Assembly: GCA_965219535.1 (NCBI GenBank)
Contig: CBDCNV010000002.1
Coordinates: 1,710,001 to 1,742,000, forward strand
Source of the DNA: Opitutales bacterium
Lineage (GTDB): Bacteria > Verrucomicrobiota > Verrucomicrobiia > Opitutales > PNEW01
DNA length: 32,000 nucleotides
Direction: 5' to 3'
Position 1 is the first letter of the stretch; every line of letters starts with the position of its first letter. Positions 2,287 through 25,905 of this stretch are shown here, piece by piece. Made by a program: the position numbers and the translations under genes. The notes below the pieces were generated by a model. It was not told where the DNA came from. It worked only from the letters and a program-made list of their open reading frames with translations, and did no database searches.

Positions 2287-2355
2287 ATGTTTAGTGGTAT
2301 CAAAAATTATCCTCATAGATTTCTGTGTATCAAATAATTCAATAGGTATAAGCTG

Positions 2356-2820: not shown

Positions 2821-2902
2821 TTCTGAATAGTATGGGGTTAACTGAAAAATCCCAGCGATTTCGATCCAGAATATACCCTTGAGAAGGGATGATGAACTGC
2901 GT

Positions 2903-3769
2903 CTAGTCGGCAATACCTAATTCGCGCATCCGCTCTATCCAACTGGCACGGAGCGAACTGTTCTCTTTATTTAAAAACCACTCTTTTCTATAATCGGGTT
3001 TGGCGCTCTTCTTATCAGTGCGAGTATTAAACACCTGTTTCGACCACTTGACCTGTCCCCGCATCTGTTCAATATGATCGGTGGACTTTGGATAGGCATA
3101 GTAAACAATCTCGAGCATTGTCCGGCCCGCTTTACCCCCGCGACTGGCATGCCAGCAGTTGAGATTAAATAAAACAACATCTCCCGGATTGCTTTCACAG
3201 GCAAAGCCGGGAAAGGTTTCAATATTTTCGGGATTGCTGATTCCCGGCATTTTCTTCAGGTCTCCATAGTAAGGTTGCTTGTGGCTTCGAGGGATAATTC
3301 GCAGCGCGCCGGTATCAGCAGTGAGCGTATCGGTATAAAATCCAAACTTGATTCCATAGCGATGGTCGGGATAGGGGTTAATCGGTGGATGGTCGGGGTG
3401 CCAGCGCGTATCGCCGACAAATAAACTAGCGTGACATTGATGTCCGATGAGGTCCTCACCAAAATGCTGTTTTGCTATACCATAAACTCGTTCGTCTTCC
3501 GAAAGCGTAAAAATAAAGGGCGAATAGGAATTGGAAAGTTGTATTGTTTGCAGTCGATCACTCGAAGGAATTGTCGGATCAAAAGGCAGGTCGGCAAAAG
3601 TAATTTCCTTCGCTTTTTCAATTTCCTTATTTATTTTCTCAACTTCATTCTCAGAGAAAAACTGCTTAAGGACAATGAAGCCAAATAAATCAAAGAATTG
3701 GAGTTCGTCACTGTTCAGGGACAAGCGAGGACCTGTAGTCGGGTTGGGAAATATAACAGATTGGATCAT
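2903..3769 (-). CDS. phytanoyl-CoA dioxygenase (PhyH) family Fe(II)/2-oxoglutarate oxygenase
   Basis: 288 aa. It has an N-terminal FFDLFGFIVLKQFF motif, a GDTRWHPDH (HxD) motif, DTGALRIIPRSHKQPYYG, and a distal His in NCWHASRGG. Confidence 0.8.
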   Translation of the reverse strand: MIQSVIFPNPTTGPRLSLNSDELQFFDLFGFIVLKQFFSENEVEKINKEIEKAKEITFADLPFDPTIPSSDRLQTIQLSNSYSPFIFTLSEDERVYGIAKQHFGEDLIGHQCHASLFVGDTRWHPDHPPINPYPDHRYGIKFGFYTDTLTADTGALRIIPRSHKQPYYGDLKKMPGISNPENIETFPGFACESNPGDVVLFNLNCWHASRGGKAGRTMLEIVYYAYPKSTDHIEQMRGQVKWSKQVFNTRTDKKSAKPDYRKEWFLNKENSSLRASWIERMRELGIAD

Positions 3770-3770
3770 A

Positions 3771-9511: not shown

Positions 9512-10201
9512 TTAACTATTATAACTATGGACTTTTTCACAAATCAATCTCAGAGATCCTTCAACATCACCTGATGCTGTTTTAAAGGAATCGGCATCAA
9601 CCGTCAAGGGAGCCCCGAGGACTACGAGGGGGGCGCCATACTCCGGTGTACGCATCGCCTGTTCGATGGTCAACCCGCCAACGGCTTGAACGGGGACACT
9701 GACTGCTTGCACGACTTCCCTCAATAGATCAAGTGGACTAGGCGCATTTTCTCCCCGCTCGTGCATTCCCCCACGCTCATCATAGCCGATGTGGTGAACG
9801 ATATAGTTGCATCCGAGGTCTTCGAGGTGCTTTGCCGCTCCTACCATGTCGTCACAAGCTAAATTATCACCCATCACCTCAATCCCGAAATCCTGACAGG
9901 CTTTAACTACACGTATAACTGTTTCATCATGTGCTTTAGCCATCACCACCACTTGGGTGGCTCCGGCTTTAGCCATCATTTCGGCTTCGAGGTAACCCCC
10001 ATCCATGGTCTTGAGATCGGCCACAATTGGCGTATCCGGAAACCGTTCGCGCAGCGCTTTAACCCCATGTAAACCCTCTGCGAGGATGAGCGGAGTCCCT
10101 GCCTCGAGCCAATCGACACCCGCCCGCATCGCCATCTCTGAAGTTTTCAGAGCTTCTTCAATATTAGTGAGATCGAGAGAAATTTGAACAATAGTTTTCA
10201 T
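9512..10201 (-). CDS. 3-hexulose-6-phosphate synthase / 3-keto-L-gulonate-6-phosphate decarboxylase family (OMP decarboxylase suprafamily)
   Basis: 229 aa. The pattern QISLDL...WLEAGTPLI...IVADLKTMDGG...VVVMA matches the signature of the HPS/UlaD/SgbH family. Confidence 0.8.
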   Translation of the reverse strand: MKTIVQISLDLTNIEEALKTSEMAMRAGVDWLEAGTPLILAEGLHGVKALRERFPDTPIVADLKTMDGGYLEAEMMAKAGATQVVVMAKAHDETVIRVVKACQDFGIEVMGDNLACDDMVGAAKHLEDLGCNYIVHHIGYDERGGMHERGENAPSPLDLLREVVQAVSVPVQAVGGLTIEQAMRTPEYGAPLVVLGAPLTVDADSFKTASGDVEGSLRLICEKVHSYNS

Positions 10202-10466
10202 AAGAATTTATCACACTTCGAGGGCAATTATACTTAAATTAAGAGGGACCAGAGATGATTTCACACGCTGACGGTAAATAATAAAACAATACAGCTCCCA
10301 CTAATCCAGCCATTTCACTATATTTTAGTTACAAAAATGAAGAGTGTAAATTAACAGAGCCCGGGATTTATGAAAATACCTGAGTGAATTCTCAGCTATT
10401 TCCACCCATAATGTGATGTCAATGACGTCGTGAAACATAACGGGATATAAAAAAATCGGATAAGAC

Positions 10467-10489
10467 TTGCTAATTAGTTTAATTAGCAA
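10467..10489. promoter_or_regulatory. perfect 10-3-10 inverted repeat TTGCTAATTA-gtt-TAATTAGCAA, candidate operator
   Basis: I read it directly and the arms are exact reverse complements. It lies in the 416-bp divergent intergenic region, 129 bp upstream of the TolC-like start and 266 bp from the start of the HPS-like gene. Confidence 0.5.
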
Positions 10490-10617
10490 TAAATCATCGT
10501 AACTTTACGTTACCCCATGACTGCTTTACCTCATTCAAAGATGATGCATATTTAATAACCCCCCTTTTGTGATGGGCAGATATTTAAATATTTTCACGCA
10601 CACGGATACTATTCCCA

Positions 10618-12219
10618 TTGAAAAAGAGTATGACTCTATTGCCAGCAAATTGTATTTATTTAGTAAGGCGATTCTTTATCGCTATTGTCCTGCTGTGCCT
10701 GATTTTAAACGCGTCAGGCGCGGAAGAGGGACCTGATACTTCTCGCGAACTGTCACTGCGGGAAGCGGTAAACCGCGCCCTGGAACAGAATCTTGGATTA
10801 ATTATAGAACGCTATCAACCGGGTTTGTTCGAGGATGATATCACGGTGGCCCAATCGCAGTTTGATCCGGAGATTCGTATACGGAGCAACTTGGATGAAA
10901 CGTTGAGTGCATTAGCCCAGAGCACTCTCGATGGCGCGGCCCAACCAGAGGACGACAATAGAAGTTTTTCCGTAGCGGTGGATAAGAAAATATCTACGGG
11001 TGGAACAGTCGAATTGAGTACCTGGATGAACCGGTATGAGACAAATTCTACATTTGCTATCCTCAACCCCGATTTCCTCTCGGAAATAGCAATAAGTTTT
11101 GAACAACCCTTGCTCAGTGGGGCATGGCGAAAAGTTAATCTCGCGCCTATCGCGAGGGCGAAAGCTGCACACACGCAATCTATACTGGAACTGCGCAGAC
11201 GGGCATTTAATGTCTTGGCCAATATTGAAATTAATTACTGGCGAATAGCTTATGCCACAGCTCGAAAAATATTACAGGAGTCGAGCATCGAAGTCGCCGA
11301 GAAATTACTGGAAGAAACAAAAGAAAAGGAACGTGTGGGCTTGGCTACGCAAGTAGATGTGCTTCAGGCGAGCGCTAATCTTGCCTCACGACGTGAAGCC
11401 GTCATTCTTGCCTCTCAAGCTATCGATGATGCTTCTGATCGTCTATATTCAAGCATGGGTGAACTAAAGGCGAACAATCCTCCCCTCGCGGTGGATTCGC
11501 TGCCTGAATCGGAGATTACAATTCCAGACTTTAACCTTACTTATAAAAAAGCACGTGAACTCGATCTGGATATGCGGATCCAGCAGGAAATCATCACCAG
11601 AAGTGAAATAGATGTCACGGTAGCGCGTAATAGACGGCTTCCGGATCTGGACCTTACACTCGCCGGTGGATATCGGGGCCGTGATTCGGATGGTTCGGGT
11701 TCTTACAGTAATGCATTCGACGGTGATGGTTATGCCTGGAGTGCGGGTCTCGAATTCAGCGTGCCTTGGGGCAATCGTGAAGAGCGAGCCCGCCATCGCC
11801 AAACGAAGCGAGTTCTGGAACAGGAAGAAGTGCGTCTCGATGATATAGAACAGGATATGTTGGGCAATCTGCGCTCTGCCTGGCGGGCGGTTGCCGCGGG
11901 TAAGGAGCGGCTGTTAGCGAATCAAATATCAGTCGAAGTTAATGAAGAGCGTTTCGATAAAGAACGCGCTAAATTTGAAGCGGGGGTATCGACCTTCCGC
12001 GTGGTGCTCGAAGCCCAGGAAGATTTGGACGAAGCGCGACTGCGCCACCTTGACGCCCGCTTCGACTCTATCCGTGCAGTGGTCCAGCTCACCCGACTCG
12101 ATGGGTCCATTCTTGAACGCAACGGCTTTGTCTGGCAGGATCTGGATCGTCTCAACGAATCCCCTACGCATGTAGACTTAAAAAAAACACCTGTATCTTC
12201 TCAAGAAGTTGCCAATTAA
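10618..12219 (+). CDS. TolC-family outer membrane efflux protein
   Basis: 533 aa. It has a signal-like N-terminus (IAIVLLCLILNASGAEE), the typical LSLREAVNRALEQNLGL motif, and two OEP-type repeats rich in coiled-coil segments. The track start is a TTG at 10618, and the ATG at 10630 is an equally plausible start. Confidence 0.85.
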   Translation: MKKSMTLLPANCIYLVRRFFIAIVLLCLILNASGAEEGPDTSRELSLREAVNRALEQNLGLIIERYQPGLFEDDITVAQSQFDPEIRIRSNLDETLSALAQSTLDGAAQPEDDNRSFSVAVDKKISTGGTVELSTWMNRYETNSTFAILNPDFLSEIAISFEQPLLSGAWRKVNLAPIARAKAAHTQSILELRRRAFNVLANIEINYWRIAYATARKILQESSIEVAEKLLEETKEKERVGLATQVDVLQASANLASRREAVILASQAIDDASDRLYSSMGELKANNPPLAVDSLPESEITIPDFNLTYKKARELDLDMRIQQEIITRSEIDVTVARNRRLPDLDLTLAGGYRGRDSDGSGSYSNAFDGDGYAWSAGLEFSVPWGNREERARHRQTKRVLEQEEVRLDDIEQDMLGNLRSAWRAVAAGKERLLANQISVEVNEERFDKERAKFEAGVSTFRVVLEAQEDLDEARLRHLDARFDSIRAVVQLTRLDGSILERNGFVWQDLDRLNESPTHVDLKKTPVSSQEVAN

Positions 12220-12255
12220 CATACGCAAAGATAAATAAGCTGAAAGAAACGATCG

Positions 12256-12945
12256 ATGTTAATTGAACTCATAAACGTTCGCAAGATTTACAAGATGGGT
12301 CACCAGGAATTGCATGCCTTGAAAGGGATTAACATGAATATTGGTGAAGGCGAGCTCGTCTCAATTGTCGGGCCATCGGGTTCGGGGAAATCAACACTAT
12401 TGAATATACTGGGGATATTGGACGGATTTGACGAAGGCCACTATGAATTGGCGGGAACGAGAATGGATGATCTCACGGAAAATAAAGCCGCTTACTACCG
12501 GAATAAATTCATCGGATTTATATTTCAGTCGTTCAATCTCATCACCTTTAAGAACGCGATGGAGAATGTGGCATTGCCGCTCTATTATCAAAATGTAAGC
12601 AGAAAAAAGCGAAACCTGATGGCTTTGGAATACCTGGATAAAGTAGGTTTGCGGGACTGGGCAGAGCACCTGCCGAGTGAATTATCCGGAGGTCAAAATC
12701 AGCGCGTGGCGATCGCTCGGGCATTGATCTCCAAACCTAAGCTTATACTCGCTGATGAACCTACTGGCGCCCTGGATTCTGAAACCTCAGCCGAGGTTAT
12801 GGATCTTTTTAAAGAAGTAAATAAATTGGGAATTACAGTTATAATTGTGACCCATGAACATGATATTTCTGAAAAAACAGAACGGATTATCCATCTTATT
12901 GACGGACATATTGAAAATGATGGGAACATAAACGAGCTGAGATGA
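12256..12945 (+). CDS. ABC transporter ATP-binding protein (LolD/MacB-NBD type)
   Basis: 229 aa with Walker A GPSGSGKST, Q-loop, signature LSGGQNQRVAIARAL, Walker B LILADEPTGALD and H-loop VTHE. Confidence 0.95.
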   Translation: MLIELINVRKIYKMGHQELHALKGINMNIGEGELVSIVGPSGSGKSTLLNILGILDGFDEGHYELAGTRMDDLTENKAAYYRNKFIGFIFQSFNLITFKNAMENVALPLYYQNVSRKKRNLMALEYLDKVGLRDWAEHLPSELSGGQNQRVAIARALISKPKLILADEPTGALDSETSAEVMDLFKEVNKLGITVIIVTHEHDISEKTERIIHLIDGHIENDGNINELR

Positions 12946-12968
12946 TTAATTGAATAAGGTAATCATTA

Positions 12969-14213
12969 ATGTTTGATTTTGATAAATGGAGTGAAATTTA
13001 CTCCACGATAAGCAAAAGTAAGCTAAGGACATGCCTTACAGCTTTTAGTATAGCGTGGGGAATCTTTATGCTCGTCGTCCTCCTGGGTGTGGGGTCCGGG
13101 TTATTGAAAGGTGTAGAATACCATTTTCGCGATGACGCCACAAATACGATTTGGGTTAATCCCGGCCAAACGAGCATGCCATATCGAGGGATGAAACCTG
13201 GAAAAAAAATAACATTAACGAACATCGATCACGATCAAATTTTAGATACTGTGGCTGGGGTAGAACATATTGCTTCAAGGTACTTTCTTCGAGGAGAATA
13301 TTTAATCAGGTATAAGAAAGATTTCGGTCTGTTTAGGGTGCGGGCAACTCATCCGGGCCATCAATACATTGAGAAAACAGTTATTACTCAAGGAAGGTAT
13401 TTAAACGATTTGGATATAAGTGAACGCCGTAAGGTTACGGTCATTGGATTAAATGTGGTGGAAAAGTTATTTAAAAATAAAGAACCCATTGGTGAATGGA
13501 TCGATATAAACGGAATAAAATACAAGGTCGTTGGCATAATCAAAGACCTCGGATATGAGTGGGAAATGAATTGGATATATATCCCGATCACAACCGCTCA
13601 GATGGCCTACAATGGAGCTAACCGAGTGCATCAGATTATTCTTACCACAGGAGATGCGAATCTGATTGAGAGTGATTTCATGGCCGCAAATATTAAAGAC
13701 CAATTAGTAGAGCGACATATATTTTCACCGGATGATTCGCGTGCGATAACAGTGACGAATTTTAATGAAGTTTTTCAAAGATACTTAAACATGATTATTG
13801 GAATCAAAGCATTCATATGGTTAGTTGGTCTTGGCACTATTGCTGCAGGAATAGTCGGGGTAAGTAACGTCATGCTGATTGTGGTTAAAGAAAGGACGCG
13901 TGAAATTGGTATCCGGAAAGCAGTTGGTGCCACACCTAAATCAATAATAGGATTAATTTTACAAGAATCCATCACCGTGACAATGATCGCTGGTTATATC
14001 GGCCTGGTTGCCGGGGTCGCCTTTATCGAATTTTTCAGTTGGGCATTGGAAACTTTTGACCTGCAGGGAGATTTTTTCAGGAATCCTGAATTCGATTTTA
14101 AATCCTCAATATTGGCTACTTTTATTCTCGTATGTGCCGGGACTTTAGCTGGATTTTTTCCCGCAAAGTTTGCTGCCCAAGTGAAACCCGTTGAAGCACT
14201 GAGAGAAGAATAA
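12969..14213 (+). CDS. FtsX/MacB-type ABC permease, class A copy 1
   Basis: 414 aa. It starts MFDFDKWSEI and has TM1, a periplasmic domain of about 220 aa, a coupling helix ERTREIGIRKAVGAT, three C-terminal TM helices, and the ending KPVEALREE. Confidence 0.9.
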   Translation: MFDFDKWSEIYSTISKSKLRTCLTAFSIAWGIFMLVVLLGVGSGLLKGVEYHFRDDATNTIWVNPGQTSMPYRGMKPGKKITLTNIDHDQILDTVAGVEHIASRYFLRGEYLIRYKKDFGLFRVRATHPGHQYIEKTVITQGRYLNDLDISERRKVTVIGLNVVEKLFKNKEPIGEWIDINGIKYKVVGIIKDLGYEWEMNWIYIPITTAQMAYNGANRVHQIILTTGDANLIESDFMAANIKDQLVERHIFSPDDSRAITVTNFNEVFQRYLNMIIGIKAFIWLVGLGTIAAGIVGVSNVMLIVVKERTREIGIRKAVGATPKSIIGLILQESITVTMIAGYIGLVAGVAFIEFFSWALETFDLQGDFFRNPEFDFKSSILATFILVCAGTLAGFFPAKFAAQVKPVEALREE

Positions 14214-14227
14214 GAACAAAGAGAGCA

Positions 14228-15496
14228 ATGTTTGATTACGATAAATGGCAGGAGATTCTCTTAACTATCCGTAAGAATAAATTACGTACCGCACTGACAA
14301 TGTTCGGTGTATTCTGGGGAATACTAATATTGATATTATTACTCGGTTCGGGCGAAGGATTGATTAATGGATTTAAAGGTGAATATTCGTGGATGCGAGG
14401 TAACGCGGGATTTCTTTGGACTGAAATTACTTCTATACCTTATGAAGGTATGCAACGCGGTCGACGCATTCAACTTCGGAATGAAGATACCGAAGCTATT
14501 CGCCAAAGTGTACATGAATTGGAATATGTGTCCCCGAGAATATTTACCGGGGGTATGAATGGTGAAAATATTGTCAGTCGCAAAAGTAATACAGGGGCAT
14601 TTAATATCTATGGAGATTATCCCTCTTTTTCATATGTACGAAATATGAATATAGTAAAAGGTAGATTCATAAATGATTTAGATATCAGGGATAAAAGGAA
14701 AGTAGCAGTGATCGCAGAGCAGGTCGTCAATGTTCTATTTAAAAAAAATGAGAAAATAATTGGTGAATATATCATAATACACGGTATTAATTTTAAAGTG
14801 GTTGGGCTAACTAAGAATACTGCAAGGTATGATAGTCAATATGCTAATCGGGACATGAATTCGATATATTTACCGTTCACCACATTTCAGAAAGCCTTTA
14901 ATTATGGAAATAGGGTGGGTTGGTATGGGCTAACCTTTAAACCTGGAAATGACGCAAACGAGGGTAGCGATAAAATTAAAAAATTGTTAATGAAACGGCA
15001 TAAAATTCATCCTGATGACATTAGCGCTTTTGGTTCGTGGAATACCCAGGAGGATTATAGAAAAGTCATAAGTTTATTTAAGGGAACCCGCTTATTTGTG
15101 TGGATGGTAGGAATTTGCACCTTTATGGCCGGGTTAATCGGGGTAAGCAATATCATGCTGATTATTGTCAATGATCGAACTAAAGAAATAGGGATACGAA
15201 AATCTCTGGGTGCCTCTTCAAAATCAATTATTAGTTCAATCATCCAGGAGTCTGTTTTTATCACTGCAATAGCTGGTTATTGTGGCCTACTACTGGGTGT
15301 CATCTTAATCGAGGGAAGTGGCATTGTGATGCAAAAAATGGCAGTGGAGACCGGATCGTTTTCGAATCCTGAGGTAAATTTTAACGTGATTATTTTAGCT
15401 TTTGTAATAATTATTATAGGTGGTGTCTTGGCAGGTTTATTACCTGCAAAAAGAGCTGTGTCGATCAGCCCGATGGAAGCAATCCGGTATAATTAA
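14228..15496 (+). CDS. FtsX/MacB-type ABC permease, class B copy 1
   Basis: 422 aa. It starts MFDYDKWQEIL, has the coupling helix DRTKEIGIRKSLGAS, and ends SPMEAIRYN. Confidence 0.9.
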   Translation: MFDYDKWQEILLTIRKNKLRTALTMFGVFWGILILILLLGSGEGLINGFKGEYSWMRGNAGFLWTEITSIPYEGMQRGRRIQLRNEDTEAIRQSVHELEYVSPRIFTGGMNGENIVSRKSNTGAFNIYGDYPSFSYVRNMNIVKGRFINDLDIRDKRKVAVIAEQVVNVLFKKNEKIIGEYIIIHGINFKVVGLTKNTARYDSQYANRDMNSIYLPFTTFQKAFNYGNRVGWYGLTFKPGNDANEGSDKIKKLLMKRHKIHPDDISAFGSWNTQEDYRKVISLFKGTRLFVWMVGICTFMAGLIGVSNIMLIIVNDRTKEIGIRKSLGASSKSIISSIIQESVFITAIAGYCGLLLGVILIEGSGIVMQKMAVETGSFSNPEVNFNVIILAFVIIIIGGVLAGLLPAKRAVSISPMEAIRYN

Positions 15497-15510
15497 TATA
15501 TTTGATAACT

Positions 15511-16755
15511 ATGTTTAATTTAGACAAATGGAGTGAAATTATCTCCACAATTAGTAAAAATAAATTAAGAACTTTTCTTACGGCGTTCAGTATTGCCTGG
15601 GGGATATTTTTACTCGTTGTCCTCTTGGGTGCAGGATCGGGATTTCTTAATGGCATACTATACCAATTCCGTGATGACGCGATGAATAGTTTTAAAATCT
15701 CTCCCGGGACTACGAGCATGCCTTATAAAGGGATGAAACCCGGTAAGAGAATACAATTAACAAACGAAGATTATGAAATGATCGCAGACAATGTTCAGGG
15801 GGTAGAGCACATCACCGCGCGCTATTTCCTATCCGGTGAATATCCTATCAGGTATAAATTAAATAATGCCAGGTTTACGGTGAGAGCAACACACCCCGGT
15901 CATTTATATTATGAAAAGACGGAAATTACTCAAGGCCGGTTTCTTAATGAAAAAGATTTAATGGAACGAAGAAAAATAGCAGTAATTGGCGCGAACGTTG
16001 TAAAGATATTATTTATAAATGATGATCCGATGGGTAAATGGATCGAGATAAATAAAATACCCTATAAAGTAGTCGGGGTATTCGATGATGCGGGAAGAGG
16101 ATTTGAAATTAGTATAATATATATTCCAATTTCGACGGCGCAATCGGTCTATAACGGGGCTAATAAGGTTCACGAAATATTATTTACAACCGGCAATGTC
16201 AGTTTGAAAGACACACGATTAATGGAGAAGGTGACGACAAGAATCCTTGTCGAACACCATAGGTTTTCTCCTGAAGACGAGCGGGCGGTTGATGTTGAAA
16301 ATAATAACGAAACGATGCAAAAAGTTTTAAACATGATTTCAGGGATAAAATTTTTCATTTGGATCATAGGGGTAGGAACGATTACCGCTGGCATTGTAGG
16401 GGTGAGTAACATTATGATGATTTCTATTAATGAGCGAACACGCGAGATTGGAATCAGGAAAGCGATTGGTGCTACGCCAAATTCGATCATCAGTCTGGTT
16501 TTACAGGAATCATTCGTTATTACACTCCTCGCCGGTTATGTTGGGCTGGTCTTAGGAGTCGCTACGATTGAATTTGCCAGCTGGGCGTTTGAGCATTTCG
16601 AATTGCAATCTGAATATTTCAGAAATCCCGAAATTGATTTTAAAACAGTTATAACGGCTACTATTTTTCTTGTTTTCGCGGGGGTTCTCGCCGGTTTTTT
16701 CCCCGCCCGATTAGCCGCTAAAATAAAACCCGTTGAAGCGCTAAGAGAAGAATAA
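15511..16755 (+). CDS. FtsX/MacB-type ABC permease, class A copy 2
   Basis: The ORF track starts at a TTG at 15502. The ATG at 15511 gives MFNLDKWSEI, which is collinear with the other class A copies. It has ERTREIGIRKAIGAT and ends KPVEALREE. Confidence 0.9.
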   Translation: MFNLDKWSEIISTISKNKLRTFLTAFSIAWGIFLLVVLLGAGSGFLNGILYQFRDDAMNSFKISPGTTSMPYKGMKPGKRIQLTNEDYEMIADNVQGVEHITARYFLSGEYPIRYKLNNARFTVRATHPGHLYYEKTEITQGRFLNEKDLMERRKIAVIGANVVKILFINDDPMGKWIEINKIPYKVVGVFDDAGRGFEISIIYIPISTAQSVYNGANKVHEILFTTGNVSLKDTRLMEKVTTRILVEHHRFSPEDERAVDVENNNETMQKVLNMISGIKFFIWIIGVGTITAGIVGVSNIMMISINERTREIGIRKAIGATPNSIISLVLQESFVITLLAGYVGLVLGVATIEFASWAFEHFELQSEYFRNPEIDFKTVITATIFLVFAGVLAGFFPARLAAKIKPVEALREE

Positions 16756-16768
16756 GAATAAAAGCAAT

Positions 16769-18034
16769 ATGTTTGATTATGATAAATGGCAGGAAATCCT
16801 GATTACGATCAGGAGAAATAAACTGCGGACTATTCTGACAATGTTCGGGGTATTCTGGGGTATTCTCATGCTAATGTTATTAGTGGGGTCAGGACAGGGT
16901 CTTGCCAATGGAATGAATAGGGAATTCGCCCATTGGGGTTTTAATAGCGTATATCTTTGGTCCAACACGACAACCAAAGCTTACGAGGGAATGACCCCCG
17001 GTCGTGAAATACAATTTACGGATGAAGATACAAAAGCGATAAAACATAAATTCGAGGAAGTAGAATATTTAGCGCCCAAAATTCAGTTGGGTGGCTTCCG
17101 GGGAAATCAAATAGTTAAGCATAAGAATAAAGTTGGAGACTTTCATGTAATGGGCGAAGTCCCGGATCTAAGAAATTTCGTTTCTATCAAAATTGTCGCC
17201 GGAAGATTTATTAACGACCTGGATCTTCTTGAGAGAAGAAAAGTAGCCGTGGTAGGCGAGAATGTTATCAAGATTCTTTTTAAAAAGGGGGAGGAATATA
17301 TTGGTAAATCATTAACTGTTAACGGGATACATTTTACAATTGTCGGCAGGTTGAAAACCGATGCCCCCTATGAATTTTGGACGGAGCGAGACAGGAATTC
17401 GATAATGATACCCTTCACGACATTTCAACAGACCTTTAATCAAAGAAATCGGGTAGGGTGGTATGCAATGGGGGTTAATCCATCAGCCCATGGAGACGAA
17501 TTAGGTGACGATATAAAATCGATGTTAATGAAACGGCATAAAGTTCATCCTGAAGATTTAGCAGCATTTGGATATTGGAACAGCCACAAGGAGTTTTTAA
17601 AGGTTCAAGGTTTATCTAAGGGGATGCGTGTCTTTATCTGGTTTGTCAGTCTATGCACCCTCTTAGCGGGAGTGATCGGGGTGAGTAACATTATGATAAT
17701 TGTCGTCAACGAGCGGACTAAAGAGATAGGTATCCGAAAATCGATGGGGGCATCGCCAATCAGTATTGTCAGTTTGATTATGCAGGAGTCGGTATTTTTA
17801 ACCACTGTAGCCGGTTACATCGGGTTACTCCTGGGCATCGCGATGATTGAAATATTGCGAAAAGTATTAGGGGGGATTGGTGATAATATGAGCTTGATAT
17901 CCCGTCCCGAGATCAACTTACAGGCCGCTGGATTAGCCTTGTTGGTTATAATCATTGGTGGTGTCATTGCCGGCATCCTTCCTGCGCGCAAAGCAGCTTT
18001 AATCAGCCCGATGGAGGCAATCCGGTATAAATAA
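16769..18034 (+). CDS. FtsX/MacB-type ABC permease, class B copy 2
   Basis: 421 aa. It starts MFDYDKWQEIL, has ERTKEIGIRKSMGAS, and ends SPMEAIRYK. Confidence 0.9.
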   Translation: MFDYDKWQEILITIRRNKLRTILTMFGVFWGILMLMLLVGSGQGLANGMNREFAHWGFNSVYLWSNTTTKAYEGMTPGREIQFTDEDTKAIKHKFEEVEYLAPKIQLGGFRGNQIVKHKNKVGDFHVMGEVPDLRNFVSIKIVAGRFINDLDLLERRKVAVVGENVIKILFKKGEEYIGKSLTVNGIHFTIVGRLKTDAPYEFWTERDRNSIMIPFTTFQQTFNQRNRVGWYAMGVNPSAHGDELGDDIKSMLMKRHKVHPEDLAAFGYWNSHKEFLKVQGLSKGMRVFIWFVSLCTLLAGVIGVSNIMIIVVNERTKEIGIRKSMGASPISIVSLIMQESVFLTTVAGYIGLLLGIAMIEILRKVLGGIGDNMSLISRPEINLQAAGLALLVIIIGGVIAGILPARKAALISPMEAIRYK

Positions 18035-18058
18035 CTTTTAGCATATATTATTAGGGCG

Positions 18059-19303
18059 ATGTTTAACATAGATAAATGGAGTGAAATATTTTTCACCATT
18101 AGGAAAAATAAGATGAGAACATTCCTTACGGCTTTCAGTATAGCTTGGGGGATATTTTTACTGGTGGTTCTTTTGGGTGCTGGATCGGGTTTTCTCAATG
18201 GCGTGCTCTACAATTGGCGTGATGACGCGATAAATAGTATAAGTATCGAACCTGGACAAACTAGCTTGCCCTACAAAGGAATGAAACCGGGAAAAATGAT
18301 TCAATTAACAAACGAAGACCACAATCAAATTAAAGATAAGGTCAGGTCAGTTGAGCATATTTCCTCTCGATTTAATCTAAGGGGGGATTACACGGTCAGA
18401 TATAAGTACAATTTTGCTCGTTTTCCTGTGCGTGCCGTCCATCCCGGACATATACACTTTGAAAAGACAATTGTTACGGAAGGTAGATTTATCAATGAAC
18501 TTGATATTAAAGAGCGGAGAAAAGTGGTCGCAATTGGGGTGGAAGTCGTCGACATTTTATTCAAAAATGAAGAACCGATAGGGAAGTGGATTGAAGTCAA
18601 CCAGATACCGTATAAAGTGGTCGGTGTATTTAGGGATGAAGGAGTAAGTTTTGAATTGAGCGTCATTTATATGCCGATATCAACGGCACAAATGGCGTAT
18701 AATGGCGCAAACCGGGTGGACGAAATATTATTCACTACGGGCAGTGCGAGCTTCAAAGAAACTCAGTTGATGACAAAGGAGACTAAAAATATAGTCGCCG
18801 AGCATCATCGGTTTTCTCCGAAGGATCCGCGTGCAGTAGAAGTTTTTAATTATAATGAAATGCTGCAAAGGTTTCTCAATATGATTGCAGGTATAAATGT
18901 TTTTATCTGGGTAGTTGGTGTCGGTACGATGGCAGCCGGTATTGTCGGGGTGAGCAATATAATGATTATCGCAGTCAAGGAGAGAACGCGTGAGATTGGA
19001 ATCAGAAAAGCAATAGGGGCAACTCCAAGCTCAATAGTGGGATTGATATTACAGGAATCGCTTATCGTTACATTAATAGCCGGGTATGTAGGTATGGTCG
19101 CCGGGGTAATTTTTGTAGAATTGGCTAACTGGGCATTTGATAACTTTAACGTACAATCGGAATATTTCAGAAACCCGGAAATTCACTTTAAAACTGTAAT
19201 TATGTCGACAATTCTACTGGTTGTTGCCGGTTCGATTGCAGGTTTTTTCCCCGCTCGATTGGCGGCGCTAGTAAAACCCGTCGACGCACTAAGGGAAGAA
19301 TAA
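18059..19303 (+). CDS. FtsX/MacB-type ABC permease, class A copy 3
   Basis: 414 aa. It starts MFNIDKWSEI, has ERTREIGIRKAIGAT, and ends KPVDALREE. Confidence 0.9.
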   Translation: MFNIDKWSEIFFTIRKNKMRTFLTAFSIAWGIFLLVVLLGAGSGFLNGVLYNWRDDAINSISIEPGQTSLPYKGMKPGKMIQLTNEDHNQIKDKVRSVEHISSRFNLRGDYTVRYKYNFARFPVRAVHPGHIHFEKTIVTEGRFINELDIKERRKVVAIGVEVVDILFKNEEPIGKWIEVNQIPYKVVGVFRDEGVSFELSVIYMPISTAQMAYNGANRVDEILFTTGSASFKETQLMTKETKNIVAEHHRFSPKDPRAVEVFNYNEMLQRFLNMIAGINVFIWVVGVGTMAAGIVGVSNIMIIAVKERTREIGIRKAIGATPSSIVGLILQESLIVTLIAGYVGMVAGVIFVELANWAFDNFNVQSEYFRNPEIHFKTVIMSTILLVVAGSIAGFFPARLAALVKPVDALREE

Positions 19304-19320
19304 AATTCAATTATATAGAC

Positions 19321-20595
19321 ATGTTTGATTACGATAAATGGCAGGAGATTCTGAGTACGATCAGAAAAAACAAACTGCGTACTTCACTTACTATATTTGG
19401 TGTCTTCTGGGGTATACTGATGCTTATATTATTGCTCGGTTCGGGACAAGGTCTGTCAAATGGAATGACGCGTGATTTTGATCGTGTGGGTATAAACACT
19501 GTAGGAGTTTGGGCCGAAATGACAACGAAACCTTACGAAGGATTGTTAGCGGGGCGTACAGTACAATTTACCAATGAAGATACAGTCGCACTTAAAAGAA
19601 ATATCGACGCCATTGAGCATATTTCCCCCCAAATACAATTGGGTGGATGGTCAGGTAGACAAGGTCCCACTTCAGTCACACGTAATAGTAAAAAGGGTAA
19701 TTTTATTATAAAAGGAGATAATCCGGAAATTAGAAACATAGTGAATATCCAGATCAAAAAAGGAAGATTCATTAATGATATAGATATTAAGAATAAGAGA
19801 AAAGTGGCAGTAGTTGGAGACAATATTATCAAGCTACTTTTTAAGAAAGGTGAAAACATTATTGGAGAAACAATAAATATCACCGGTGTTAGTTTCACTA
19901 TTGTTGGCAATCATAAAACATTAGCCGCTAATGGATTTTGGACGGAGAGAGATAATAATACTATTTATACACCCTTCTCGACGATACAACAGGCGTTTAA
20001 TTATCGGAATAGAGTAGAGTGGTATATGTTTGGGGTTCGACCCAATGAAAATTCCCGTGAATTGGAAGGTAAAATCAGAGCATTCTTAATGAAACGGCAT
20101 TACATTCATCCCGAAGATAATGCGGCCTTGGGGTCCTTTAATAGTCAGGATGAATATAATCAAGTGCAGGGATTGTTAAAAGGGATTCGTGTTTTTGTCT
20201 GGTTTGTTGGGCTATGTACTTTGTTAGCGGGAGTGATAGGAGTGAGTAATATTATGATGATTGTGGTCAATGAGCGAACGAAAGAAATAGGCATCAGAAA
20301 ATCCATGGGAGCAACACCTTTTAACATCGTCAGTTTAATCATGCAGGAGGCAGTATTTTTAACTGCCATTGCCGGTTATTTAGGATTACTTCTGGGTATC
20401 GCATTGATAGAACTATTGCGAATAGCTATGAGAAATATGGGTGAACACATGAGTTTGATCTCCCGCCCAGAGGTAAATTTGCAAGCCGCAGGTTTTGCGT
20501 TGATGATCATAATTTTTGGAGGATTAATAGCGGGGATACTACCTGCGCAAAAAGCAGCCTCGATCAGTCCCATGGAGGCAATTAGATATAAATAA
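19321..20595 (+). CDS. FtsX/MacB-type ABC permease, class B copy 3
   Basis: 424 aa. It starts MFDYDKWQEIL, has ERTKEIGIRKSMGAT, and ends SPMEAIRYK. Confidence 0.9.
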   Translation: MFDYDKWQEILSTIRKNKLRTSLTIFGVFWGILMLILLLGSGQGLSNGMTRDFDRVGINTVGVWAEMTTKPYEGLLAGRTVQFTNEDTVALKRNIDAIEHISPQIQLGGWSGRQGPTSVTRNSKKGNFIIKGDNPEIRNIVNIQIKKGRFINDIDIKNKRKVAVVGDNIIKLLFKKGENIIGETINITGVSFTIVGNHKTLAANGFWTERDNNTIYTPFSTIQQAFNYRNRVEWYMFGVRPNENSRELEGKIRAFLMKRHYIHPEDNAALGSFNSQDEYNQVQGLLKGIRVFVWFVGLCTLLAGVIGVSNIMMIVVNERTKEIGIRKSMGATPFNIVSLIMQEAVFLTAIAGYLGLLLGIALIELLRIAMRNMGEHMSLISRPEVNLQAAGFALMIIIFGGLIAGILPAQKAASISPMEAIRYK

Positions 20596-20608
20596 CAAAA
20601 CATAACCT

Positions 20609-21682
20609 ATGAAAAAATTTTACATTATAATTATCGTTGCATTTTTAGTCCTAAGTTTCTTCGGCACCCTTGTGTTTCTTTACCAAAAAGCGGTGGAAAA
20701 GGACGTTATCTTTGAAACGGAAACGCCCTTTTACACGGATATTGTCAAGAAGGCGGTAGCTACAGGTACGATTACTCCAAGGAGAGAGATTGAAATTAAA
20801 TCACAGGTGTCGGGAGTGGTAGAAAAGCTTTATGTCGAACCGGGCGAAATTGTTAAGAATGGAGATCTGCTCGCCAAGATCAGGATTATTCCGGACATGG
20901 TAAATCTTAACAATGCAGAATCCCAGCTCAATACCGCGCGGATCAATTATGAAAACGCGAAACAGGAAAAAGAAAGGCAGGCGCAGCTTTTCGAGAAAAA
21001 ATTCATTTCAGAATTTGATTATGACCAATATGTACTCGAATTTAATCTCGCCGAAGAGCGTTTAGAATCGGCAGAGAATAATGTTCAGTTAATCCGGGAG
21101 GGTACATCTAATAAGGAGGGGCAGGTTACGAATGAAGTTACCTCTACCGTTAATGGGATGATTCTCGATGTCCCGGTACGAGAGGGGAGTTTTATTATTG
21201 AATCGAACACCTTCAACGAGGGAACGACTATCATGTTCATCGCGGATATGAAATCGATGATCTTTGAAGGATTTGTGGATGAATCAGAAGTCGGAAAAAT
21301 CACAGACGGCATGGAATTGATTTTAACTATAGGCGCTATCGATACAGAGAAATTTAAAGCGCTGCTGGAATACATATCACCCAAAGGTGAAGAAAAAGAA
21401 GGGGCTATCCAATTTGAAATCAGAGCCTCGGTAACATTATCGGAAGATCATTTTATCCGGGCAGGTTACAGTGCCAATGCGGATATTGTTCTCGATACGA
21501 GGGATAATGTTCTCGCGGTGCGCGAAAGTAATCTCACTTTTGAAAAGGATTCTATATTTGTTGAAATAGAGAAAGGATACCAGGAATTTGAGAAAAAACA
21601 GATTGAGACGGGGCTATCCGACGGGATCAATATCGAAGTCCTTTCAGGGGTGACGGAAAAAGATAAGATCAAGAAGCTGTAA
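20609..21682 (+). CDS. efflux periplasmic adaptor (HlyD/MacA-type membrane fusion protein)
   Basis: 357 aa. It has an N-terminal TM anchor (IIIIVAFLVLSFFGTLVFLY), a lipoyl-like motif IKSQVSGVVEKLYVEPGEIVKNGDLLAKI, a coiled-coil hairpin and a C-terminal beta-barrel region. Confidence 0.85.
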   Translation: MKKFYIIIIVAFLVLSFFGTLVFLYQKAVEKDVIFETETPFYTDIVKKAVATGTITPRREIEIKSQVSGVVEKLYVEPGEIVKNGDLLAKIRIIPDMVNLNNAESQLNTARINYENAKQEKERQAQLFEKKFISEFDYDQYVLEFNLAEERLESAENNVQLIREGTSNKEGQVTNEVTSTVNGMILDVPVREGSFIIESNTFNEGTTIMFIADMKSMIFEGFVDESEVGKITDGMELILTIGAIDTEKFKALLEYISPKGEEKEGAIQFEIRASVTLSEDHFIRAGYSANADIVLDTRDNVLAVRESNLTFEKDSIFVEIEKGYQEFEKKQIETGLSDGINIEVLSGVTEKDKIKKL

Positions 21683-21699
21683 TTGTAAGCAGTTAACGG

Positions 21700-23631
21700 G
21701 TGAGTAAAAAGACAGTCAGTCCCTTTGGGTCATGGAAGTCGCCGATTACGATGGATACGGTTCTCGCTGAAAGCGTACGTTTTTTTGAATTAGGCTTGGA
21801 CGGTGAATCAATTTATTGGCTTGAGGGACGGCCCCAGGAAAGTGGGCGATGCGTAATCGTAAAAAAAAGTCCCAAGGGAAATATATCGGATCAATTACCC
21901 GCACCTTTTAATACCCGAAGCCGGGTTCACGAGTACGGGGGGGGTGCTTTTGTCGTCGACGATGGCACATTTTACTTCACCCATTTCAATGATCAATGCA
22001 TTTACTGTAAGCGAGGAGATGCCGATCCCTTTCCCATTACCGAGGAGGGGAAATGCTTTTATGCTGATTTCAGGTACGACCGAAAACGAGAAAGGTTGAT
22101 AGGCGTACGTGAAGATCATCGTGATGAAAACCATGAACCGATTAATACAATTGTCAGTGTCGACCTCAAACAACCCTACAAGGTTGAAGTGTTGGCATCG
22201 GGGAAGGATTTCTATTCCTCACCACGTATAAGTCCCGATGGTAGACATCTCACCTGGCTGAGTTGGGATCATCCAAACATGCCTTGGGATGGTTGTGAAG
22301 TGTCGATGGCAAAATTTGCAAATGATGGCCGCCTCAATGATCCCATCCACGTTGCAGGTGGGCTCGACGAGTCAATCTTCCAACCGGAATGGTCACCGGA
22401 TAATATACTTTACTTTGTCTCAGACCGGACGGGGTGGTGGAACATTTATCGCTATAAGGAAAGTAAGGTTGAGGCTCTCTATCCCATGGAAGCTGAATTT
22501 GGGCAATCCCAATGGGTATTCGGCATGTCTAAGTACGGATTCGAGTCGGAGCAGTCTATCCTCTGTGCCTATTCTCAAGACGGCGTCTGGAACCTGGCGA
22601 GACTCGATACGGTTAATAAATCGCTCGAAAAAATAGATACACCCTACACTTTAATTGAAAATATACAGGTCGGCGCAGGTAAAGTAGTATTTTTAGGAGG
22701 ATCACCGACTGAAGCATGTGCGGTTCTCACGATGGATTTAAAAAGTCGAGAGATCGAAATTATACGTAAGTCCAATTCGCTTGCGGTTGATGCCGCCTAT
22801 CTTTCAGTCCCAATGACAATTGAGTTTCCTACCGAAAATAAGCAAAAGGCCCATGGTTTTTTTTACTCTCCCAATAACAAAGATTTGACTGGGCCATCGG
22901 GAGAATTGCCTCCACTTATCTCTATCATGCATGGCGGGCCAACCGGGGCAACGGATGCGGTTCTGGATTATGGAATCCAATTCTGGACAAGCCGGGGTTT
23001 TGCCGTCTTTGATATTAATTATGGAGGCAGCACCGGATACGGCACCGAGTACCGGCGACGGCTAAATGGACGATGGGGTGAAGTCGATCTGAATGACTGC
23101 GAAAATGGTGCGCGTTACCTGGCTGACGAGGGTTATGTCGATTTCGAAAAGATGGCGATACGCGGTGGAAGTGCAGGGGGGTATACCGTTCTCAGTGCAC
23201 TGACCTTTGGGCAGGTTTATAGAACAGGTGCGAGTTACTACGGGGTCAGTGACCTTGAGATTTTAGCTAAAGACACGCACAAATTTGAATCGCGATATCT
23301 GGACAAAATTATTGGTCCTTACCCGGAATCCGCACAATTGTACCGCGACCGTTCACCGCTCTTTCATTTAGATAAATTAGGTAAACCGATAATTTTTTTT
23401 CAGGGCTTGGATGATAAAATTGTTCCTCCCAACCAGGCGGAAATGATGGTCGAGGCCTTGCGAAAGAAGGATATACCCGTGGCCTATATAGCATTCGAGG
23501 GTGAACAACACGGATTTCGAGAGGCGAAAAATATTAAAAGGGCGACGGAAGCGGAATTATATTTTTACGCAAAAATATTTGGCTTCGAACCGGCTGACCG
23601 TATTGAACCGGTGGATATTGAGAATTTGTAA
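21700..23631 (+). CDS. S9-family serine peptidase (prolyl oligopeptidase/acylaminoacyl-peptidase type)
   Basis: 643 aa with a GTG start. It has an N-terminal propeller region (FGSWKSPIT...), a nucleophile elbow GGSAGGYT, an Asp in QGLDDKIVP and a His in EGEQHGF. Confidence 0.9.
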   Translation: MSKKTVSPFGSWKSPITMDTVLAESVRFFELGLDGESIYWLEGRPQESGRCVIVKKSPKGNISDQLPAPFNTRSRVHEYGGGAFVVDDGTFYFTHFNDQCIYCKRGDADPFPITEEGKCFYADFRYDRKRERLIGVREDHRDENHEPINTIVSVDLKQPYKVEVLASGKDFYSSPRISPDGRHLTWLSWDHPNMPWDGCEVSMAKFANDGRLNDPIHVAGGLDESIFQPEWSPDNILYFVSDRTGWWNIYRYKESKVEALYPMEAEFGQSQWVFGMSKYGFESEQSILCAYSQDGVWNLARLDTVNKSLEKIDTPYTLIENIQVGAGKVVFLGGSPTEACAVLTMDLKSREIEIIRKSNSLAVDAAYLSVPMTIEFPTENKQKAHGFFYSPNNKDLTGPSGELPPLISIMHGGPTGATDAVLDYGIQFWTSRGFAVFDINYGGSTGYGTEYRRRLNGRWGEVDLNDCENGARYLADEGYVDFEKMAIRGGSAGGYTVLSALTFGQVYRTGASYYGVSDLEILAKDTHKFESRYLDKIIGPYPESAQLYRDRSPLFHLDKLGKPIIFFQGLDDKIVPPNQAEMMVEALRKKDIPVAYIAFEGEQHGFREAKNIKRATEAELYFYAKIFGFEPADRIEPVDIENL

Positions 23632-23925: not shown

Positions 23926-25905
23926 TCACTCAACAGTCTCCTCGACTACAGTGACCGGGATTACATCACCGTCAGTATTTGAAAAGGTGGCATTGATACT
24001 TTGAGTGGGCTGTGTGGTCCCGTCCGACTTTACATTGTTTTGTGAAATCAATGTCTCGAAACCCGGTGTTGTCGATCCGCTCGGTGCAATGACGATTGAA
24101 GATGCATTGGTCTGAACAAGATCGCCTCCCGTAATTCGCAACCCGGGGTTAGTCGCTTCTACAGTAAAAGAATTATCACCGAAGAGGAGGAGTGGCACGG
24201 CATCTCCCAAGGCATCGATATCACCTATTAAAACCCTGACCGAGACAGGTACTCCTAGCGCATTGAGCCCAACATTTCCCGTCGAAGCACTGAAATTTGT
24301 ATTCGCACAGAGGATTCCTCCCATGCCTGACGAATTTATAATTTCAACGTATGAGACATCAGCCTGGGCATCGTAAACTTCTTCCTCTGGGAAGAGGCTT
24401 TGATTAACCGAATTCAGGCGCCCGACGGAAAATATACTGAAGAAAGTGCTATCATCAGCCCCATTAATAACAATGCTGGCGCGGCCCTTAACATAATTAA
24501 CATCGGGTTGATTATATTTACGGGGTGGCGCAGGTTCTTCAAAGGTGTCGGCATCGAGAATTATTGTCAGCGTCCCGCTACCGGAAAATTCTACCTGAAC
24601 GATATCTTCATCTTCATCAATAAAAGAAGCACGTGTTATCTGGTCGGGATCGGCCCGCAATGTAACGAGAGGGCCTTCAAGAAGTATCTGATCGAAAACA
24701 TTCCCATTGGAATGCACGATATTAAAACCGACAACCGTACCGCTCCCATCGAGTGCTACTTCATCGGGAACAACTGTAACCTCGCTTATAACTGAAATAA
24801 TAGCGGTAATACTGTCAGTAATACCTTCTGCTCCTGTGACCCGAACCCAATAAAAATTCGTGCTGCTTTGCGAGCTCGTCAATAAAGTGCTCTCGTTACC
24901 GGTCGATATGATGGTATTGCCACCGCCGTCAAATACAGGATTAGAGGTATCACCTCTCTCGCCCATAAACCAACTATAAGTTCTGTTGTCTCCCTCCGTT
25001 TCGACGAATAATTCAACTGCCGTATCGGAATCCACCCTTTGGCTTTTAGGTTGACTGAGAACATTCGGGCCACTCGATCCGTCAACTACCAAGGTAAGTA
25101 TAGAACTGAACGCAGTCCCGATTGTATTGCTGATTTCCACGGTATAGTTGCCAGCGTCCGCACTTTGAACGTCGTTGATAGTAAGAGCACTACTTGTAGC
25201 TCCCCCAATAATCTGTTCATCTTTACGCCATTGGAAACTCAATGGTTCCTGTCCTTCGACGACGACGGTAAATTCAGCTGTTGAACCCGGATCCACTTCA
25301 AGTAGCCCAGGACCTACCGTGGATATCAAAGGAATCCCTGTTCCGAGCAAGGCCAGATTATGATCTGCTCCCGCGACAACTTCAGTGACACCTGAAAGTG
25401 CTTCCGGTAATTCTGTTTGACCATCTGCATCATTACCCCAGGCGATAACTGTTCCATCGGCGAGTGATATAATGTTATGGAAGAGACCGGCGGCTATGGA
25501 GGTGACCGAACCGGCGTTAAACTGTGAATTGATAGTTCCTTTAGCATTCGCGGTTGAATTTACAGAACCTGATGCAATTTCAGGAACATTCAGTTGCCCC
25601 AAACTATTATCACCCCAGGCGATGATGGTCCCATCCGATTTTACCGCGAGACTGTGCTGTGCACCGGCAGTGACAGCGATCACATCACTTAAATCAGCGG
25701 GCACATCAATCTGACCAAATCTATTATCACCCCAGGCGACGACGGTACCATCTGATTTAATAACCAGATTGTGTATGGCACCCGCTGCAATAGATTCAAC
25801 ATTTTGAAGATCTTCCGGAATATCTGTTTGTCCCACTCTATTATTACCCCAGGCGACGACGCGGCCATCCGATTTTAAAGCGAGACTGTGGACACCACCA
25901 CCCAC
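23926..25905 (-). CDS. C-terminal fragment of the same protein (RCC1 blades 4-7, Ig-like domain, unknown C-terminal domains)
   Basis: 659-aa ORF whose frame is open up to 25953 (SATPPIDLTDVVSIVGGGVHSLALK...). It has WGNNRVGQ, WGDNRFGQ, WGDNSLGQ and WGNDADGQ, plus an I-set-like motif SADAGNYTVEISN. Confidence 0.8.
   Translation of the reverse strand: MGGGVHSLALKSDGRVVAWGNNRVGQTDIPEDLQNVESIAAGAIHNLVIKSDGTVVAWGDNRFGQIDVPADLSDVIAVTAGAQHSLAVKSDGTIIAWGDNSLGQLNVPEIASGSVNSTANAKGTINSQFNAGSVTSIAAGLFHNIISLADGTVIAWGNDADGQTELPEALSGVTEVVAGADHNLALLGTGIPLISTVGPGLLEVDPGSTAEFTVVVEGQEPLSFQWRKDEQIIGGATSSALTINDVQSADAGNYTVEISNTIGTAFSSILTLVVDGSSGPNVLSQPKSQRVDSDTAVELFVETEGDNRTYSWFMGERGDTSNPVFDGGGNTIISTGNESTLLTSSQSSTNFYWVRVTGAEGITDSITAIISVISEVTVVPDEVALDGSGTVVGFNIVHSNGNVFDQILLEGPLVTLRADPDQITRASFIDEDEDIVQVEFSGSGTLTIILDADTFEEPAPPRKYNQPDVNYVKGRASIVINGADDSTFFSIFSVGRLNSVNQSLFPEEEVYDAQADVSYVEIINSSGMGGILCANTNFSASTGNVGLNALGVPVSVRVLIGDIDALGDAVPLLLFGDNSFTVEATNPGLRITGGDLVQTNASSIVIAPSGSTTPGFETLISQNNVKSDGTTQPTQSINATFSNTDGDVIPVTVVEETVE

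Follow-up and report, generated by a model that had tools for sequence, protein, structure and literature searches.

The usual description of a MacB-type tripartite ATP-binding cassette (ABC) pump has a single transporter, a single adaptor, and a single outer membrane channel, and the periplasmic domain of the transporter meets both the substrate and the adaptor. Here we analyzed a 32,000-nucleotide (nt) stretch of contig CBDCNV010000002.1 from an Opitutales bacterium (positions 1,710,001 to 1,742,000; hereafter, the window), which carries an efflux operon in the order TolC-like channel, one ABC ATPase (nucleotide-binding domain, NBD), six permeases of two classes (A-B-A-B-A-B), and adaptor. 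Close relatives hold one, two, or three whole A+B pairs (cassettes) of four types, as expected if the pairs are exchangeable modules. We consider it probable, though by no means certain, that the pairs act as alternative A+B heterodimers, all served by the same ATPase dimer, adaptor, and channel.

Judged by gene content, the closest characterized analogue of a single A-B module is VarACDEF of Vibrio cholerae (VC1563 and VC1565–VC1568), which consists of the MacB-like permeases VarD and VarE, the ATPase VarF, the adaptor VarA, and the channel VarC and confers macrolide resistance dependent on the TolC/VarC channel (PMC5595328). Both have a channel, an adaptor, two separate MacB-like permeases with four transmembrane (TM) segments, and a separate ATPase. 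In contrast, VarACDEF, compared here by description only, has one pair and another gene order, and no cassette polymorphism has been reported for it. MacAB-TolC of Escherichia coli, Aggregatibacter, and Acinetobacter gave the best sequence and fold matches for A and B and shares the adaptor and TolC partnership and the type VII architecture of four TM segments with a periplasmic domain. However, the NBD of MacB is fused and one gene forms a homodimer, whereas the window has a separate NBD, two permease classes, and up to three pairs in its clade; the identity of A and B to MacB is only about 18–25%. LolCDE, with its LolC-LolE-LolD2 stoichiometry (PMC8277102), combines two paralogous permeases with a separate dimeric ATPase and serves as the model for a complex of A, B, and two NBDs. 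The resemblance is organizational only: Lol is essential and single-copy and has no adaptor or TolC partner, whereas the operon here includes an adaptor and a channel, holds one to three pairs depending on the genome, and has decayed in one relative (L103). In clusters annotated in Porphyromonas gingivalis (PG0679–PG0685, PG1662–PG1667, and PG0280–PG0283), a single ATPase gene goes with two or three permease genes, besides genes for TolC and an adaptor (PMC12094164). Permeases outnumber ATPases there as well, but these clusters, compared by annotation only, are uncharacterized, have at most three permeases, and have not been described as alternating two-class arrays. The ATPase MceG of Mycobacterium tuberculosis is described as serving both Mce1 and Mce4, that is, several modules that give specificity (PMC9947336); such systems belong to other ABC types, import substrates or transport lipids, and have their modules at separate loci, in contrast to tandem efflux cassettes.

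Reviews of the MacB family list homodimers (MacB and FtsX), the LolCE heterodimer, and fused forms, namely YbbP and BceB (PMC5985334 and PMC8277102). Neither review discusses heterodimeric tripartite pumps, and the probable heterodimeric nature of the family described below is barely mentioned in reviews. No functional study of ADOP or of two-permease MacB systems in Bacteroidota was found in the literature. The preliminary description of this locus knew of no characterized system with such a stoichiometry. Six permeases per ATPase, an alternating two-class array, and cassette polymorphism were indeed not described in the literature searched, whose coverage was incomplete; on the other hand, a two-permease pump, VarACDEF, has been characterized. 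Taken by itself, the ratio of six permeases to one ATPase extends what is known from multi-permease clusters.

Ten closely spaced genes occupy positions 10618–23631 of the plus strand, and the efflux operon corresponds to 10618–21682. The genes are as follows.

10618..12219, plus strand: TolC-family outer-membrane channel (OEP), operon gene 1 (PF02321 in two stretches, E 2.8e-43)
12256..12945, plus strand: single ABC ATPase (NBD) of the MacB/LolD/DarD type, 229 amino acids (aa) (PF00005, E 3.5e-30)
12969..14213, plus strand: permease A1 (cassette type 1, class A), 414 aa (MacB_PCD + FtsX; four TM segments)
14228..15496, plus strand: permease B1 (cassette type 1, class B), 422 aa (MacB_PCD + FtsX)
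15511..16755, plus strand: permease A2 (cassette type 2, class A), 414 aa (MacB_PCD + FtsX)
16769..18034, plus strand: permease B2 (cassette type 2, class B), 421 aa (MacB_PCD + FtsX)
18059..19303, plus strand: permease A3 (cassette type 3, class A), 414 aa (MacB_PCD + FtsX)
19321..20595, plus strand: permease B3 (cassette type 3, class B), 424 aa (MacB_PCD + FtsX)
20609..21682, plus strand: periplasmic adaptor (membrane fusion protein), 357 aa (TIGR01730 RND_mfp, 124.8 bits; cut-off, 94.9)
21700..23631, plus strand: S9-family serine peptidase or esterase, downstream neighbor (PF00326, E 1.7e-49)

These coordinates agree with the preliminary description, which reported six permease genes of 414–424 aa, separated by gaps of 13–24 nt, after a single NBD gene; gaps of this size separate the NBD, permease, and adaptor genes. 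For A2, the open reading frame (ORF) list extends to a TTG at 15502, whereas the ATG at 15511 agrees with the homologues. The channel matched TIGR01844 under its curated cut-off, lies 36 nt upstream of the NBD gene, and is found at the same position in all clade relatives. The NBD translation contains the Walker A (GPSGSGKST), signature (LSGGQ), and Walker B (ILADEPT) motifs, and its best NCBIfam matches were DarD, the MacB NBD, and LolD, all under the equivalog cut-offs. In the adaptor, HlyD_D23 and HlyD_3 domains were found along with a match to MacA under the cut-off (6.9e-27), and the adaptor gene directly follows the last B in every locus. One NBD, one adaptor, and one TolC-like gene thus accompany six permease genes, as had been claimed, and the presence of adaptor and TolC-family channel genes alongside the transporter is that of a MacAB-TolC-type tripartite pump.

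To assign the permeases to a family, we searched with single sequences and with family profiles of A and B. Both classes matched full-length MacB (5LIL, 5GKO, and 5NIK) and pneumococcal Spr0695 (5XU1) with E values of 1e-37 to 1e-44, whereas LolE/LolF profiles matched at 1e-5 to 1e-10 only, mostly in the C-terminal part. Scores against the LolC/LolE family models (TIGR02212, NF008076, and NF008357) were 29–50 bits, compared with cut-offs of 362–540. The MacB equivalog NF007826 has a cut-off of 966, and the permeases scored 106–124 bits and the unfused NBD 236; no curated NCBIfam model for A, B, or the NBD reached its cut-off. The duplicated permease ADOP (TIGR03434) was rejected as a candidate, with 101–119 bits against a cut-off of 622 and single units of 414–424 aa instead of fused proteins of approximately 800 aa. 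AlphaFold2 models of A2 and B2, built from alignments of 53 and 56 sequences, had predicted local distance difference test (pLDDT) values of 81 and 76, respectively; in both, TM1 is long and is followed by a mixed alpha/beta domain and by three more long helices. When the models were compared with the PDB using Foldseek, A2 matched 5GKO (7.6e-29) and 5NIK (query TM-score [TMq], 0.75), and B2 matched 5GKO (1.4e-23; TMq, 0.62); LolE, YtrF, HrtB, YbbP, and BceB ranked below MacB. Each of the six has the four TM segments, large periplasmic domain between TM1 and TM2, and FtsX-type C-terminal module of type VII ABC permeases. Taken together, sequence and predicted fold indicate that both classes are MacB-like, not Lol-like. 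Accordingly, the label "LolC/LolE-like" given to the pair earlier stands as an analogy of gene organization and fails as a family assignment.

Protein identities were 63.5–69.3% among the A copies, 53.9–64.8% among the B copies, and 36.7–43.0% between A and B, and MacB_PCD and FtsX were above the Pfam cut-offs in all six, each with four hydrophobic segments. These values and domain calls bear out the two strictly alternating classes seen at first. The N-terminal, coupling-helix, and C-terminal motifs quoted for the classes were all present, and the tail MSLISRPE[IV]NLQAAG was confined to B2 and B3. Copies 2 and 3 had been thought closest to each other; neighbor-joining trees of the window paralogues (200 bootstraps) recovered the topology (1,(2,3)) for A and B alike, and the grouping of copies 2 and 3 had 100% support. 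The paralogues share 61–70% DNA identity (30–39% diverged), their longest common exact word is 32 nt, and synonymous divergence (dS) is saturated. Because of this divergence, the short exact words, and the saturated dS, the duplication is considered old. The strings cited as evidence that B2 and B3 encode one motif by different synonymous codons were located at 17711 and 20272. An assembly artefact was ruled out, since the paralogues are this diverged in DNA and the array recurs in independent assemblies: L001 and L002, both assembled from other samples, carry an identical one.

Divergence is distributed unevenly along the proteins. In the periplasmic domain, identity was 60% (A-A), 48% (B-B), and 32% (A-B). 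The best conserved parts were the N-terminus with TM1 (83%, 87%, and 61%, respectively) and the coupling-helix loop (82%, 77%, and 67%), and the small TM3–TM4 loop was a second site of concentrated divergence. The substitutions thus fall mostly in the periplasmic domain, as the preliminary description had noted.

Looking up close homologues yielded a set of relatives that have flanking genes in common with the window, namely, an orotidine monophosphate (OMP)-decarboxylase-like gene upstream and the S9 peptidase and a giant RCC1-repeat/immunoglobulin (Ig)-domain gene downstream. Flank DNA identity to the window was approximately 94%, except for L089 (91%) and for L090 and L093 (approximately 80%). 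L060, the chromosome of an Opitutales metagenome-assembled genome (MAG), has the same synteny with approximately 94% flank identity, and the assignment of the window to an uncultured Opitutales lineage is based on it. The cassette sets were as follows.

{2}: L086/L087, L060, and L093
{3}: L089
{1,2}: L003-5, L088, and L091
{1,3}: L090
{4,2}: L092/L094 and the circular 4.98-Mb L095
{1,2,3}: the window, L001, and L002

Type 4 shares 62–67% (A) and 54–58% (B) identity with the window copies, and the type 3 orthologues of L089 and L090 share 83–84% (A3) and 78–79% (B3) with those of the window. The order is fixed, with type 1 or 4 first, then type 2, and then type 3. A and B of the same type always adjoin, no lone A or B occurs among the clade loci, and no mixed-type neighbors (of the A1-B2 kind) were found in 12 haplotypes. 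Whatever the cassette content, the channel, NBD, and adaptor proteins of the nearer relatives are 93–98% identical to those of the window. The A and B neighbor-joining trees (200 bootstraps) are congruent, ((2,3),(1,4)), and the four types form one clade with 100% support against other phyla; therefore, the duplications took place within the lineage, before the sampled genomes split. These results substantiate the claims that the A+B pair is the duplicated unit, since it is gained and lost whole, and strengthen the view of the pairs as exchangeable modules. Frameshift-like breaks were seen in the channel gene of L092 and L093 and in B1 and the adaptor gene of L090. They are probably sequencing errors of low-coverage (5–15x) long-read contigs, and real pseudogenes are possible.

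The copy-number variation bears on the suggestion that all six permeases could form one large hetero-assembly with the ATPase. The 13–24-nt spacing in one apparent operon would suit such a complex, and internal promoter- and terminator-like sites are no more frequent than in shuffled controls: between 9500 and 24500, we counted 35 sigma-70 promoter-like sites (38.6 in shuffles) and 11 terminator-like sites (13.2 in shuffles), by scans that may not suit Verrucomicrobiota. However, relatives have one, two, or three pairs beside an NBD, adaptor, and channel that are 93–98% identical, with type 2 alone or type 3 alone served by essentially the same three proteins, and known type VII ABC systems all have two permease units per complex (PMC5985334). 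A single assembly of six permeases is therefore extremely improbable.

Copy-number variation could also mean that the extra pairs are dosage copies or are bound for loss and add no function, and one locus of the clade is dead. On short-read contig L103, positions 2140–3447 hold an in-frame fusion of A2 residues 1–323 to adaptor residues 235–357 at an "IGA" microhomology, the channel gene is broken by stops into three ORFs, and the NBD is truncated and lacks its N-terminus; therefore, the pump is accessory and dispensable in that strain. To evaluate selection, we calculated the ratio of nonsynonymous to synonymous divergence (dN/dS) against orthologous cassettes, which was 0.06–0.11 for A1, 0.09–0.12 for B1, 0.11–0.24 for A2, 0.09–0.15 for B2, 0.09–0.11 for A3, and 0.13–0.14 for B3. 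The channel (0.09–0.27) and S9 (0.06–0.20) genes gave values similar to the permeases' 0.06–0.24. All six permease genes are under purifying selection. The paralogues are 31–46% diverged in protein and saturated in dS, yet their dN/dS is 0.06–0.24 and their motifs are intact; broken TM or coupling-helix motifs were looked for in the six copies as signs of decay, and every copy retains both the motifs and its four TM segments. Moreover, compared with L091, whose flanks are approximately 6% different, dS was 0.04 for A1 and 0.01 for B1, in contrast to 0.48 for the adaptor. Near-identity of cassette 1 in spite of this flank difference points to recent spread between lineages, not decay. On these grounds, redundant or decaying duplicates are very unlikely, and the paralogy is old and maintained, as proposed earlier.

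Other comparisons also showed a mosaic of divergence. Against L003, dS was 0.13 for the channel, 0.25 for the NBD, 0.78 for A1, 0.94 for B1, 0.51 for A2, 0.42 for B2, 0.53 for the adaptor, and 0.16 for S9. By sliding-window DNA comparison, we located breakpoints within genes: B1 of L088 is 100% identical to the window over approximately 900 nt and then 76–84% identical, and this drop marks a point of recombination; the type-3 A gene of L089 is type-2-like over its first 135 nt; and in L088 and L092, the type-2 A gene has a type-3-like middle part. The intergenic stretch 5' of the first A follows the NBD allele, not the cassette type. The first and last approximately 30 nt of the genes are conserved in DNA among paralogues and provide short homologies at the cassette borders. 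We tentatively propose that a fixed engine takes interchangeable heterodimeric cassettes that vary among strains through homologous recombination at the conserved gene ends, so that substrate range would be shuffled horizontally; this fuller proposal is possible, and we hold it with less confidence than the sharing of one engine. Such exchange would be analogous to that of specificity-subunit cassettes elsewhere and is undescribed for tripartite efflux pumps.

Another possibility is that any A pairs with any B, in which case three pairs would yield up to nine heterodimeric pumps instead of three cognate ones. The membrane core and coupling loop are 65–87% identical within a class, breakpoints lie inside pairs, and types combine freely ({1,3} and {4,2}), so co-expressed non-cognate subunits are at least tolerated. 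On the other hand, A and B of the same type are inherited together in the 12 haplotypes, which fits co-adapted partners and is also expected from linkage. Combinatorial pairing appears unlikely, although less so than the other alternatives considered here.

We next asked how far the A-B arrangement extends beyond the clade. A scan of one genome per species with an alignment of the six proteins yielded 80 loci, and a metagenome scan yielded seven, for a total of 87. The 80 loci belong to Bacteroidota, Acidobacteriota, Myxococcota, Eisenbacteria/Krumholzibacteriia, and one Opitutales MAG, and the total sample covers at least five phyla. When their ORFs were sorted by class-specific profiles, exactly one A followed by one B was found at each of the 80 loci, normally in the order NBD-A-B-adaptor, with the exception of two contigs ending after A; all seven metagenome loci were canonical or truncated. 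At E < 1e-20, there are more than 7,000 relatives of class A and more than 6,000 of class B, and named relatives are called only "ABC transporter permease." Multi-pair arrays were, among the sampled loci, confined to the Opitutales clade of the window. Alternating A/B arrays were found among the clade relatives, and the other sampled loci were single-pair. On this distribution, NBD-A-B-adaptor with one A and one B is best described as an old module in which A+B is an obligate unit.

This regularity also bears on the possibility that A and B never pair and instead form six separate homodimeric pumps on one ATPase, as in E. coli MacB. The characterized MacB, FtsX, and Spr0695 permeases are homodimeric (PMC5985334), and both classes have a complete MacB-like fold. 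However, in approximately 100 loci from several phyla, A and B are adjacent and strictly 1:1, and within the clade, neither is gained or lost without the other, which makes separate homodimers improbable.

At five of the 80 loci, all from Bacteroidales/Marinifilaceae (L042, L050, L051, L061, and L064; around 10001–12530), the A-B pair is an orphan with no adjacent NBD or adaptor. Its neighbors are unrelated genes, for example, those for a TonB-dependent receptor, a fucosidase, and a phosphofructokinase. Since there is no NBD nearby, one encoded elsewhere must serve these pairs; evidently, NBDs of the A-B family can act from a distance, as far as gene positions indicate.

Returning to alternative A+B heterodimers on one engine, we prefer this reading because A and B are universally linked 1:1 and are gained and lost as pairs and because the engine is invariant across cassette sets while the NBD-facing elements are the most conserved. 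The proposed pump would be a tripartite ABC exporter of the MacAB-TolC type in which separate genes encode the ATPase and the two permeases, A and B, of the inner-membrane part. An A+B heterodimer would bind two copies of the one ATPase, and this unit would sit under an adaptor hexamer joined to one TolC-like channel. In this lineage, the A+B unit has given rise to several diverged cassettes, of which this genome carries three and the clade four; each would make an alternative version of one pump, and the versions differ mainly in the periplasmic domain. The cassettes might widen or shift what the cell expels from the periplasm or the outer leaflet, perhaps antimicrobial peptides, lipopeptides, or macrolide-like compounds.

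Several points weigh against this interpretation. Heterodimer formation, cognate pairing, sharing of the NBD, expression of all six genes, and the substrates are what we infer from sequence. Physical linkage would by itself make the A and B trees congruent. No second NBD was matched within the 32-kb window, and the genome beyond it may hold more NBDs. By region, dN/dS was 0.06–0.22 in the periplasmic domain and 0.05–0.16 in the membrane/cytoplasmic core; with at most 0.22, gene-wide positive selection on the periplasmic domain is unsupported. These values represent purifying selection in both regions, somewhat relaxed in the periplasmic domain, so divergence in specificity is putative. No hint of a substrate was found in a conserved neighbor, riboswitch, or regulator: ORF clustering over the 80 loci revealed no conserved neighbors beyond the NBD, A, B, and the adaptor, and an Rfam scan of the whole window gave no match. 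The earlier observation is, as a whole, confirmed, and its interpretation is partly supported.

A fixed engine with permease cassettes that recombine at the population level is unexpected. In this locus, the membrane part that would bear specificity is modular and multiplied and varies within a natural population, whereas the energy and conduit parts are fixed. If the pairs are alternative heads, they constitute a natural experiment on the MacB periplasmic residues that set substrate range. If true, efflux capacity could evolve by cassette exchange instead of acquisition of whole pumps, and attention would be drawn to the widespread NBD-A-B-adaptor family, which has thousands of homologues and no NCBIfam equivalog.

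Regarding regulation, a sigma-54 link has been published for COG0577 in Opitutia (PMC12316311). A search for a sigma-54 promoter pattern found 12 sites where 11.1 were expected, and the upstream intergenic region contained none of them; the COG0577 link was thus unconfirmed here. The G+C content at 12000–21000 of the window is 0.38–0.43 compared with 0.44–0.51 in the flanks, with a strong positive GC skew in the operon; the low G+C is compatible with foreign origin or with membrane-protein composition. The exact A1 protein has no record in the gene index, and A2 and B2 of the same contigs are on record. This gap probably reflects a different called start and has no bearing on the finding.

The S9 peptidase gene (21700–23631), with a hint of a beta-propeller (PD40), lies downstream of the adaptor gene in all clade relatives. 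The gap between them is 18 nt in the window versus about 130–270 nt in the relatives, and no signal peptide was evident on reading the N-terminus. Three Bacteroidales loci (L066, L071, and L080) also have an S9 gene, in their case upstream of the module. YbbAP, a type VII system, is described as working together with the hydrolase TesA (PMC12654888), and by analogy a partnership of the S9 peptidase with the pump is conceivable. In L089 (13857–18154), genes for a glycosyltransferase family 2 (GT2) protein (838 aa) and a type I ABC exporter (ABC_membrane + ABC_tran, 593 aa) are located between the adaptor and S9 genes.

The giant RCC1/Ig gene on the minus strand (23926–28259) is split in the window into overlapping ORFs of 659 and 794 aa. 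It is one gene of 1444 aa in L088, L091, and L092; elsewhere, it is represented by 675+289+501 aa in L003 and by 1126 aa in L086. In L004, an insertion sequence (HTH_Tnp_1 + rve) adjoins it. This gene may be a second variable spot beside the pump, or the differences may be assembly frameshifts. Finally, the window contains tandem paralogue pairs at 1310–2286 and 2903–4868, which encode cyclic nucleotide monophosphate (cNMP)-binding-domain proteins (156 and 154 aa) and PhyH-family dioxygenases (288 and 365 aa), respectively.

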